Positions 2,018 through 4,235 of a stretch of DNA of 64,000 nucleotides are shown one piece after another (the first letter of the stretch is position 1; every line of letters begins with the position of its first letter). Below the pieces are notes generated by a model. It ran no database searches. It was not told where the DNA came from and worked only from the letters and a program-made list of their open reading frames with translations. Position numbers and translations under genes: made by a program. The DNA is from Escherichia coli (GTDB lineage: Bacteria; Pseudomonadota; Gammaproteobacteria; Enterobacterales; Enterobacteriaceae): the NCBI RefSeq assembly GCF_003334255.1, contig NZ_QOWU01000013.1; one strand, given 5' to 3'.

Positions 2018-3349
2018 TTACCCGCCCATGCGGGCAACTTTCTCTTCGATTTGCCGGATTTTTTCCGGCATTTCTTGCGCAATGTGGCGAAACGCCTCGC
2101 TGATACGCGGATCTCTGGCGACCGTTTGCCAGAACTGCTGCGCCAGCGGGATCGCCGTTAACCAAGCGCTTTTACTGACGTTAAGATCAAACTTCACCTC
2201 AATGGCAGCATCACGCAGCATTCCAGCGCTGTTTGGTGCATAGACCATCGGCAGCATGTCGTAGACGGGCGTCAGCGCAAATGGCGGTTCAGATAAATAA
2301 AACGATAAATTACCTGCGTGCATATCGCTGTTGGCGATAAGTCGCCCAAATGCCCAGATCACTTCTGTTTGCGCCACGCTCTGGTGAGTGACAAGTTGTT
2401 GCTCACACAAACGGCGCATTGCCTGCGGCCACGATCCCGGAGAAGAGATAAACTCACTCTGCACCGCCTCCAGCGACACAATAGGCAAGCGACCATCGTT
2501 ACCTTTGCAGTCAAAGCGTTCCGCTTCGAGGAATACCTGCCTGTTACTTGTTACAAGCACCGTTGACTCGATGGCGTGGATCCCACCGTCACGCAGGATT
2601 TGCGCGGCAATAGATTCAGCAATTAGCAGGTCACCCCAACGTTGGCTGACCGCGGTTTGCTGTGGTACGGTGAATTTCACCAACACATGTTTATTGCCTG
2701 ACGGCGTTTGTGCATAGTAGGTAAATTTTGGCTGCTCGCCGCCCGCAGAAGAACCCACAATTTCTCCTGCCAGTGCATCACTTGCCAGCTGTTCGTAATG
2801 GGTGAGTTTTTGATCCAGAGGAATTTCCGCAGGGTGTTGTGCAGTAATCCATCGCTGATAATTCCCCTCCCCGACCAACCAACCGCCAGTATATTCACCG
2901 TTAAATACGGTCAGGGCGTAGAGCACATCTTCTTCCTGCCAGAGACGTATATCATCAGTCAGATTCAGTTGCGCGGCTAACTTCCTGCCCCACGCGCGCC
3001 CTAAAAAGCCCTGCGGTCGGAGATCGGTCAAATACCAGGGCAAACCATCAAACCACTGTTCGTCGCCATCTGCGCCTGTTACCAGACAACTTCCCTGCGG
3101 CCAGCACAACCGGATGTCGGCGAATTTATGCGCCTTTCCGGTATCGTCCACCCGCCAGACGGGAATACGCTCAATTCCGCGATAAGGACGCAGCAGTGCA
3201 TATCGCGTTGCCCGTGCTTTACCAAAGCGAATCACCCGATCTTCTCTGGCAACAAGGCGTGAGAACGTCGCCTGACTGATTGCCAGACGCTGGCGCAATT
3301 CCGGGGCAGAACGCGGCCCTTGCAGTAAAAGATCAGTCAGCTCGCTCAT
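2018..3349 (-). CDS. yjjJ: HipA-like Ser/Thr kinase family protein (HTH + HipA domains)
   Basis: 443-aa ORF convergent with lplA; size and position match yjjJ. Confidence 0.85.
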   Translation of the reverse strand: MSELTDLLLQGPRSAPELRQRLAISQATFSRLVAREDRVIRFGKARATRYALLRPYRGIERIPVWRVDDTGKAHKFADIRLCWPQGSCLVTGADGDEQWFDGLPWYLTDLRPQGFLGRAWGRKLAAQLNLTDDIRLWQEEDVLYALTVFNGEYTGGWLVGEGNYQRWITAQHPAEIPLDQKLTHYEQLASDALAGEIVGSSAGGEQPKFTYYAQTPSGNKHVLVKFTVPQQTAVSQRWGDLLIAESIAAQILRDGGIHAIESTVLVTSNRQVFLEAERFDCKGNDGRLPIVSLEAVQSEFISSPGSWPQAMRRLCEQQLVTHQSVAQTEVIWAFGRLIANSDMHAGNLSFYLSEPPFALTPVYDMLPMVYAPNSAGMLRDAAIEVKFDLNVSKSAWLTAIPLAQQFWQTVARDPRISEAFRHIAQEMPEKIRQIEEKVARMGG

Positions 3350-3453
3350 TAATGAATAGATTCGTGAATAGATACTTGAATAGATTTATTAACACATTTC
3401 ACTGAAAAGTATAGCGAAAATATTCAAGCTGGAGAGAAAAATGAATAGATACT

Positions 3454-3483
3454 AAAAAGCCGGAGCAGTCTCCCGCTCCGGCT
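3454..3483 (-). terminator. rho-independent terminator downstream of deoD
   Basis: 9-bp GC-rich stem AGCCGGAGC/GCTCCGGCT followed on the minus strand by a T-run, immediately 3' of the deoD stop. Confidence 0.6.
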
Positions 3484-3515
3484 TCACAAGGCAATCGCCT
3501 TGCAGCGAAACACAA

Positions 3516-4235
3516 TTACTCTTTATCGCCCAGCAGAACGGATTCCAGTGCGATTTTGATCATGTCGTTGAAGGTAGTCTGACGCTCAGCGGCAGTGGTC
3601 TGCTCGTGAGTGCGGATGTGGTCAGATACGGTGCAGATGGTCAGGGCTTTCGCGCCAAATTCTGCAGCGACGCCGTAGATACCAGCCGCTTCCATTTCCA
3701 CGCCGAGAATGCCGTATTTTTCCATCACGTCGAACATTTCGCCGTCCGGAGAGTAGAACAGGTCAGCGGAGAACAGGTTACCCACGCGAGCATCAATACC
3801 CAGTGCTTTAGCTGCATCTACTGCGTTACGCACCATGTCGAAGTCAGCGATAGCGGCAAAGTCATGGTCTTTAAAACGGATGCGGTTAACTTTGGAATCG
3901 GTGCAGGCACCCATACCGATAACGACGTCGCGCAGTTTTACGTGCGGCAGAACTGCGCCACAGGAACCCACGCGGATAATTTTCTTCACGCCGAAATCGG
4001 TGATCAGTTCTTTGGTGTAGATGGAGCAGGACGGGATACCCATACCGTGACCCATTACGGAAATTTTGCGGCCTTTGTAAGTACCGGTGAAGCCCAGCAT
4101 ACCGCGAACGTTGTTCACTTCACGGGCATCTTCAAGGAAAGTTTCAGCAATATACTTCGCACGCAGCGGGTCGCCTGGCATCAAAACTACGTCAGCGAAA
4201 TCGCCCATTTCTGCATTAATGTGTGGGGTAGCCAT
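3516..4235 (-). CDS. deoD: purine nucleoside phosphorylase
   Basis: ORF track extends to 4292, but the recalled DeoD N-terminus [33 protein letters not shown] begins at ATG 4235 (239 aa). Confidence 0.95.

Follow-up and report, generated by a model that had tools for sequence, protein, structure and literature searches.

A conserved array of 9-bp direct repeats at the hipH (yjjJ) promoter of Escherichia coli as a candidate operator for the HipH kinase

The window, i.e. the whole 64-kb stretch of Escherichia coli DNA that was analysed, has a K-12-like gene order around hipH (yjjJ), with lplA at 1001-2017 on the plus strand, followed on the minus strand by hipH and then by deoD, which extends from 3516 onwards. 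The lplA and hipH genes are convergent and stop on adjacent bases (2017 and 2018), with zero intergenic space. HipH matches the NCBIfam family NF007297 (YjjJ) with an E-value of 2.7e-203, and its residues 200-429 are covered by the Pfam domain HipA_C. The gene is monocistronic. In enterics it is located between deoD and lplA, while elsewhere its neighbours include genes for an integrase, a rotamase, a lactamase, an acyl-CoA dehydrogenase and others.

Upstream of hipH the 9-mer TGAATAGAT occurs in four exact copies on the plus strand, all within 98 bp (Table 1). The initial annotation had placed copies at 3353, 3365 and 3377, with a period of 12 bp, and a further copy at 3442; these coordinates are confirmed by an exact-match search of the window, which reveals no further exact TGAATAGAT on either strand of the whole 64 kb. 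The chance expectation, obtained from 100 dinucleotide-preserving shuffles, is a mean of 0.31 copies with a maximum of 2, and four copies are never reached. Tandem Repeats Finder describes the segment 3353-3386 as a repeat with a period of 12 bp and 2.8 copies. Because hipH is encoded on the minus strand, the gene-orientation form of the motif is ATCTATTCA, and this orientation is used below. Read in this direction, the hairpin of deoD (3482-3454) is followed by 3 nt, the distal copy (3450-3442), a spacer of 56 bp, the three tandem copies (3385-3353), the trinucleotide TTA, which forms the 3-nt gap behind the proximal tandem copy, and the ATG start codon (3349-3347). The fourth, distal copy thus immediately follows the terminator hairpin of deoD and precedes the first tandem copy by 65 bp. 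This minus-strand hairpin (3454-3482), seen by eye, consists of GCCGGAGC-N8-GCTCCGGC followed by five T's, and is not reported by a terminator scan of 3250-3560. In addition, an 8-bp inverted repeat, CTTGAATA / TATTCAAG, is present at 3375-3382 and 3421-3428 and links tandem copy 1 to an inverted, incomplete copy within the spacer. E. albertii and the other orthologues of the 15-species alignment described below do not show it.

Table 1. Features of the hipH locus, in window coordinates
Feature	Position	Strand	Basis
hipH (yjjJ) CDS, 443 aa, HipA-family Ser/Thr kinase toxin with N-terminal DNA-binding domain (predicted)	2018..3349	-	ORF, RefSeq annotation
Winged-helix domain of HipH, residues 1-55	3185..3349	-	AlphaFold2 model
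Recognition helix, residues 26-35 (QATFSRLVAR)	3245..3274 (encoding)	-	
Tandem operator copy 3, ATCTATTCA, predicted; 3 nt before the ATG, in place of a Shine-Dalgarno sequence	3353..3361	-	
Tandem operator copy 2, ATCTATTCA, predicted; best-conserved copy, 9/9 columns invariant in 15 species	3365..3373	-	
Tandem operator copy 1, ATCTATTCA, predicted; expected to lie over the transcription start	3377..3385	-	Exact match, Tandem Repeats Finder, alignment
Putative -10 hexamer, TAATAA in K-12, abutting the first tandem copy	3386..3391	-	Aligned to orthologues
Putative -35 hexamer, TATACT in K-12	3408..3413	-	Aligned to TTTAC[AC] or TTGACA of orthologues; weak
Distal (remote) operator copy, ATCTATTCA, predicted	3442..3450	-	Exact match; invariant columns in 15-species alignment

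The N-terminal part of HipH (residues 1-112) is predicted by AlphaFold2 with a mean pLDDT of 93, and contains a H1-β-H2-H3 arrangement with H3 at residues 26-35, a hairpin wing (residues 39-53) and a subsequent β domain. A structural similarity search with Foldseek identifies winged helices of the ArsR/SmtB type, i.e. SqrR, HlyU and CzrA, as the closest matches, with RMSDs of 1.5-2.2 Å over ∼53 residues, ∼30% sequence identity and a probability of 1.0, at a weak E-value of ∼0.07. In a Pfam profile search of HipH no named HTH family is reached; MarR_2 aligns with residues 11-35 below threshold (E = 0.37), and a sequence search of the PDB with YjjJ gives no match. On the basis of the topology of the model and its fold matches, residues 1-55 are confidently predicted to form a winged helix. 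Four residues in this region, Ser25, Gln26, Ser30 and Arg31, are invariant among the enteric orthologues.

YjjJ has numerous orthologues, and a profile derived from 15 of them was used to collect 80 loci from one-genome-per-species contigs, and the Salmonella locus was obtained by an exact-protein look-up. When one mismatch or less is allowed, the motif is found 186 times in the 150 nt upstream of 82 hipH genes, compared to 61 times in the other 664 kb (both strands), which corresponds to a 161-fold enrichment. About 70 of these 82 loci have the array in front of hipH, and its range reaches into the β-proteobacteria; it is observed among others in Herbaspirillum, Nitrosomonas, Gallionella, Comamonas and Methylobacter, the HipH proteins of which are ∼38-40% identical to that of K-12. 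Conservation in other enterobacteria, proposed as a check in the initial annotation, is very strong: when the regions in front of hipH from 15 enterobacteria are aligned, the four 9-mer copies account for nearly all invariant columns and the spacers are unalignable. The other conserved columns correspond to a -35-like element (TTTAC) and a -10-like element (TATAA), both positioned between the distal and the tandem copies. HipH of Salmonella is 58% identical to K-12 HipH and is encoded in the same deoD-lplA slot, with identical 9-bp sites and a retained recognition helix SQATFSRL (locus L005, 1501-2829). Its upstream region reads ATCTATTCA, a spacer of similar length and unrelated sequence, and then ATCCATTCA-AGT-ATCTATTCA-TTA-ATCTATTCA-TCT-ATG. 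Across unrelated neighbourhoods hipH is the only gene that accompanies the motif, and no conserved neighbour gene is observed. Comparison of the sequences thus solidly supports a conserved cis-element with a family-wide architecture, and the conservation of the array upstream of hipH orthologues lends support to the earlier proposal of a regulator-binding array at the yjjJ promoter.

A consensus promoter and terminator scan of the K-12-type region 3250-3560 found nothing, and the promoter elements of Table 1, which are weak in K-12, were therefore placed by alignment to the orthologues. In most loci the first tandem copy is immediately preceded by a -10-like hexamer, in the forms TATACT, TATAAT, TACAAT or TATAGT in β-proteobacteria and TATAA(A) in enterics. 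Because this hexamer abuts the first tandem copy, the array should span, if this placement is correct, the transcription start and the whole leader. A Shine-Dalgarno sequence is absent from 3350-3385, and in most orthologues the last repeat ends 0-5 nt before the ATG.

The geometry of the array is well defined. The spacing between adjacent matches is predominantly 12 bp (79 pairs), and positions 10-12 of the unit are variable, so that the unit can be described as a 9-bp site followed by a 3-bp linker. Among 70 scorable loci, the number of tandem copies is three in 55, two in 9 and four in 5, and an arrangement of three tandem copies plus one remote copy is present in 54 of the 70. In Enterobacterales the remote copy precedes the first tandem copy by 63-67 bp, and by exactly 65 bp in 24 loci. 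In other proteobacteria the upstream copy is absent and the remote copy is intragenic; in 23 loci it follows the first tandem copy at a distance of 189-190 bp. A helical phasing of the remote site was considered and dropped, since the distances of 65 and 189-190 bp are close to integral numbers of turns and the class B distance of ∼161 bp is not.

The intragenic copy is located at approximately +152 from the hipH ATG (loci L035-L084, for example L060 and L053), where it encodes the residues R-S-I-Q of the wing with the codons CGA/AGA-TCT-ATT-CAA. In these class A genes, which have a GC3 of 0.65, the synonymous sites of the intragenic copy are strongly biased, with CGA or AGA for Arg in 24 of 24 cases (background 12%), ATT for Ile in 28 of 28 (background 36%) and TCN for Ser in 28 of 28. 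In class B, characterized by [ST]R in the recognition helix, the intragenic copy has the sequence ATCGTTACA and encodes (E)IVT at +126 to +129, using the codons GAA-ATC-GTT-ACA (loci L085, L206-L209 and L211); here Val is encoded by GTT in 6 of 6 genes (background 16%) and Thr by ACA in 6 of 6 (background 14%). In the DR class a motif copy is found at hipH codons 6-8. The intragenic copy carries the motif variant of its own clade. The hipH intragenic site provides a clear natural example of a coding sequence constrained at synonymous sites by a predicted operator for its own product.

A comparison of recognition helix and motif in 89 loci reveals that the two vary together. The helix SQ[AP]TxSR, present in 74 loci, pairs with ATCTATTCA, the core CTATTCA being found in 64 of them. 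The helix [ST]R[AP]TLAR pairs with ATCGTTWCA, and CGTT[TA]CA is observed in all 8 loci with this helix, 6 of which were fetched by protein identity alone. A third type, SPATLSR, is represented by one locus from Pantoea sp. A4, an independent lineage among Pantoea with SQATLSR, and is accompanied by CGTTTCA, while DRST[IV]TR pairs with ATYGATGCA, with [CT]GATGCA present in 3 of 3 loci. Loss of the glutamine at helix position 2 thus appears to track the change of TA to GT at motif positions 4-5, which fits a direct base readout, although the number of independent transitions is small (∼3-4). This co-variation with the HipH recognition helix points to HipH itself as the regulator. A separate observation concerns a HipH subclade with the wing sequence GQKK[GS]SRY, in which the 12-bp period is kept and [TA][TA]AATTCA units replace ATCTATTCA (loci L042, L044, L051, L064 and L072); this hints that the wing may read the 5′ half of the site.

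Within E. coli the hipH gene has a patchy distribution. It is present at deoD-lplA in 1315 of 5425 complete genomes, and approximately three quarters are without hipH. Instead of hipH, ∼3876 genomes contain an 87-residue Xre-like HTH ORF (WP_000566150.1) on the opposite strand, the stop codon of which overlaps the first repeat. A role of this protein as a related reader of the array was rejected, as it has no similarity to the HipH N-terminus, shows sub-threshold family matches and is convergent with the array. The hipH-less genomes keep all four copies of the motif, and their 56-bp spacer is non-homologous to that of the window (for example O157 ATCC 43894, locus L001, 3246-3640). We interpret this array as what remains of the promoter of a divergent hipH allele that has been lost, although a different factor may be using the sites; most E. 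coli strains would thus carry a hipH-less relic of this promoter. The copy number of the array varies within the species, as E. coli 39EVA contains four tandem copies including an extra TGAATAGATTCG unit (locus L003, 2104-2149); counts of four-copy alleles from BLAST are not interpretable, because BLAST joins pieces across the repeat. In E. coli FDAARGOS_944 (locus L004, 3210-4347) insertions of ISEc60 and IS1A separate the relic array from deoD, and the small HTH ORF has become a pseudogene.

[quoted passage not shown] It has been reported that HipH is a c-di-GMP-binding protein (KD 7.6 µM), that c-di-GMP raises hipH transcription only via the native promoter, in the context of biofilm persistence and through a factor that was not identified, and that the HTH domain is needed for both toxicity and nucleoid localisation (PMC11452175, a 2024 eLife paper). 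The observations on the array are best explained if the four ATCTATTCA copies form the operator array of the hipH promoter, read by the winged helix of HipH itself and serving negative autoregulation, a reading to which we assign a probability of roughly 0.7. We infer that HipH binds the array, that this binding represses, and that c-di-GMP brings about release. Each 9-bp site would bind one HipH winged helix, and the three head-to-tail sites with their 12-bp period would occupy the stretch between the -10 box and the ATG, including the predicted transcription start. Since the sites cover this region, their occupancy would exclude RNA polymerase or block open-complex formation, and the outcome would be negative autoregulation of a toxin without an antitoxin gene. 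The remote site, located 65 bp upstream or ∼160-190 bp downstream in the gene, probably stabilises the complex by bridging or looping. Binding of c-di-GMP would release HipH from its sites and thereby increase hipH transcription; such a ligand-induced release of an autorepressor would join the binding of c-di-GMP to HipH with the c-di-GMP-dependent rise in hipH transcription. A more elaborate proposal, which we put forward tentatively and regard as possible rather than probable, is that HipH combines toxin, regulator and sensor in one protein, with an operator of three tandem plus one remote site, the latter embedded in many bacteria in its own gene by way of constrained synonymous codons, release by c-di-GMP, and residue 26 (Gln, Arg or Pro) setting the specificity for TA or GT at motif positions 4-5. 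If true, it would explain both the induction of hipH by c-di-GMP and the silencing of an antitoxin-less Hip kinase, and helix residue 26 would represent a family-wide recognition code, in which the substitutions Q26R or Q26P would trade ATCTATTCA for ATCGTTTCA.

Several other explanations have to be weighed against autoregulation by HipH. The array could be the operator of another trans-acting regulator, such as a c-di-GMP-responsive transcription factor, with HipH not being the binder. In line with this, ChIP-exo of chromosomally myc-tagged YjjJ in MG1655 detected zero binding sites (PMC8464067), and as YjjJ was expressed at its native level, which is probably very low, and a single condition was used, this result constitutes weak but real counter-evidence to binding by HipH. 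The persistence of the repeats in E. coli genomes without hipH, and the reported c-di-GMP control of the hipH promoter by a factor that was not identified (PMC11452175), also agree with a separate regulator. A further point against autoregulation by HipH is that the 9-mer pair is not exclusive to hipH: in a reciprocal metagenome scan for two exact copies with a 3-nt spacing, which was noisy, only 20 of the 73 evaluable sites precede hipH, three are E. coli relic alleles, and most others, which have no HipH-like domain in their vicinity, are ATCT-type microsatellites or coding repeats. Nevertheless, the motif is found with hipH in unrelated genomic surroundings and across proteobacterial classes, and its sequence varies together with the recognition helix of HipH, the intragenic copy included. 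A separate regulator would need to be co-transferred and to co-evolve with hipH, yet no conserved neighbour gene is present, and this explanation is considered unlikely. HipH could also bind the array for a non-repressive purpose: it might activate its own gene, or the sites might serve as a docking platform on which the kinase is sequestered or assembled. The nucleoid localisation of HipH and the requirement of its HTH domain for toxicity (PMC11452175) are in accordance with such a role, and the fixed geometry of three plus one sites suggests a defined higher-order complex. However, the sites overlap the -10 element, the +1 position and the whole leader, which is a classic position for repression, and the distal site upstream of the -35 element is compatible with either reading, so that a non-repressive function seems quite unlikely.

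Two further explanations involve no DNA-binding regulator. The repeats could act as an RNA leader that controls translation or stability of the hipH mRNA; the three tandem copies make up almost the entire 5′ leader and replace the Shine-Dalgarno sequence, and an intragenic copy would be transcribed too. On the other hand, the distal copy of enterobacteria precedes the conserved -35 and -10 elements, and the motif co-varies with a DNA-binding helix. Moreover, the leader folds worse than its shuffled controls (z = +2.34, i.e. less structured) and an Rfam search of it yields no match near threshold, by which a structured leader or riboswitch was ruled out, and RNA-level control as such is judged very unlikely. 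The array could, finally, be a functionless tandem duplication that originated from replication slippage, supplemented by a fourth copy by chance. Such an origin would account for the variation in copy number (four tandem copies in 39EVA) and for the occurrence of similar 12-bp tandem 9-mers as simple repeats in metagenomes, but not for the conservation of the array over 80 loci and several orders while its flanks diverge, nor for the fixed distance of the remote copy and the constraint on synonymous sites. A neutral tandem repeat (VNTR) was ruled out by its retention across orders with fixed spacings of 12 and 65 bp, although the copy number does vary between 3 and 4 within E. coli, and slippage with a chance fourth copy is highly improbable.

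The operators of E. coli K-12 hipBA are palindromes, TATCC-N8-GGATA, which are read by the dimeric Xre-type protein HipB, encoded by a separate antitoxin gene. The hipH array consists instead of 9-bp direct repeats with a 12-bp period, the protein presumed to read it is the toxin itself, through a fused winged helix, and one of its sites is remote, either upstream or intragenic. Common to the two systems are multiple operators at a locus for a HipA-family kinase toxin, which overlap the core promoter (for hipH the predicted one), and autoregulation by the system's own HTH that limits the toxin (PMC8262856), which for hipH is the proposed mode. The hipH array would work in the manner of type II toxin-antitoxin autoregulation and is closest in biology to the hipBA operators, yet it is not a member of that family; a HipB-type operator, as in hipBA or hipBST, was ruled out by the direct repeats and by the absence of a hipB gene beside the monocistronic hipH. 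In the literature searched no description of a HipH operator, of HipH autoregulation or of a HipH structure was found, and full-text searches with the motif in both orientations matched only unrelated primers. The Reg-Seq preprint has yjjJ among its listed promoters, and its text gives no yjjJ result. The operator array is apparently undescribed and differs from known toxin-antitoxin autoregulation in both layout and presumed reader. A defined operator, conserved from E. coli to Nitrosomonas and with variants that track one helix position, makes the questions of HipH control and of its link to c-di-GMP directly testable.

An enzyme and a DNA-binding domain are also combined in one polypeptide in BirA, PutA and NadR, which repress their own or their pathway promoter and in which a ligand is coupled to DNA binding. 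The site of BirA is an inverted repeat, bound by a dimer whose formation is induced by the ligand. Autoregulation by HipH would follow a similar logic, but with sites arranged as head-to-tail triplets plus a remote site, and with a growth-arresting kinase as the enzyme. The arrangement of the sites resembles that of OmpR/PhoB boxes, TubR-tubC, ParR-parC and plasmid iterons, where winged-helix or similar domains bind head-to-tail, often cooperatively, to short direct repeats with a period near one helical turn. The periods are 10-11 bp for OmpR/PhoB, 12 bp for the seven repeats of tubC and ∼22 bp for iterons, and these systems function in two-component signalling, partition and replication. The hipH array is chromosomal and embedded in a promoter; plasmid iterons, parC and tubC were ruled out by the chromosomal location between deoD and lplA and the absence of rep and par genes. 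The ArsR/SmtB proteins SqrR, HlyU and CzrA resemble HipH in the winged helix itself. These ArsR proteins, however, are small homodimers that bind to inverted repeats, whereas HipH is without their dimerisation helices and contains a β domain and a kinase.
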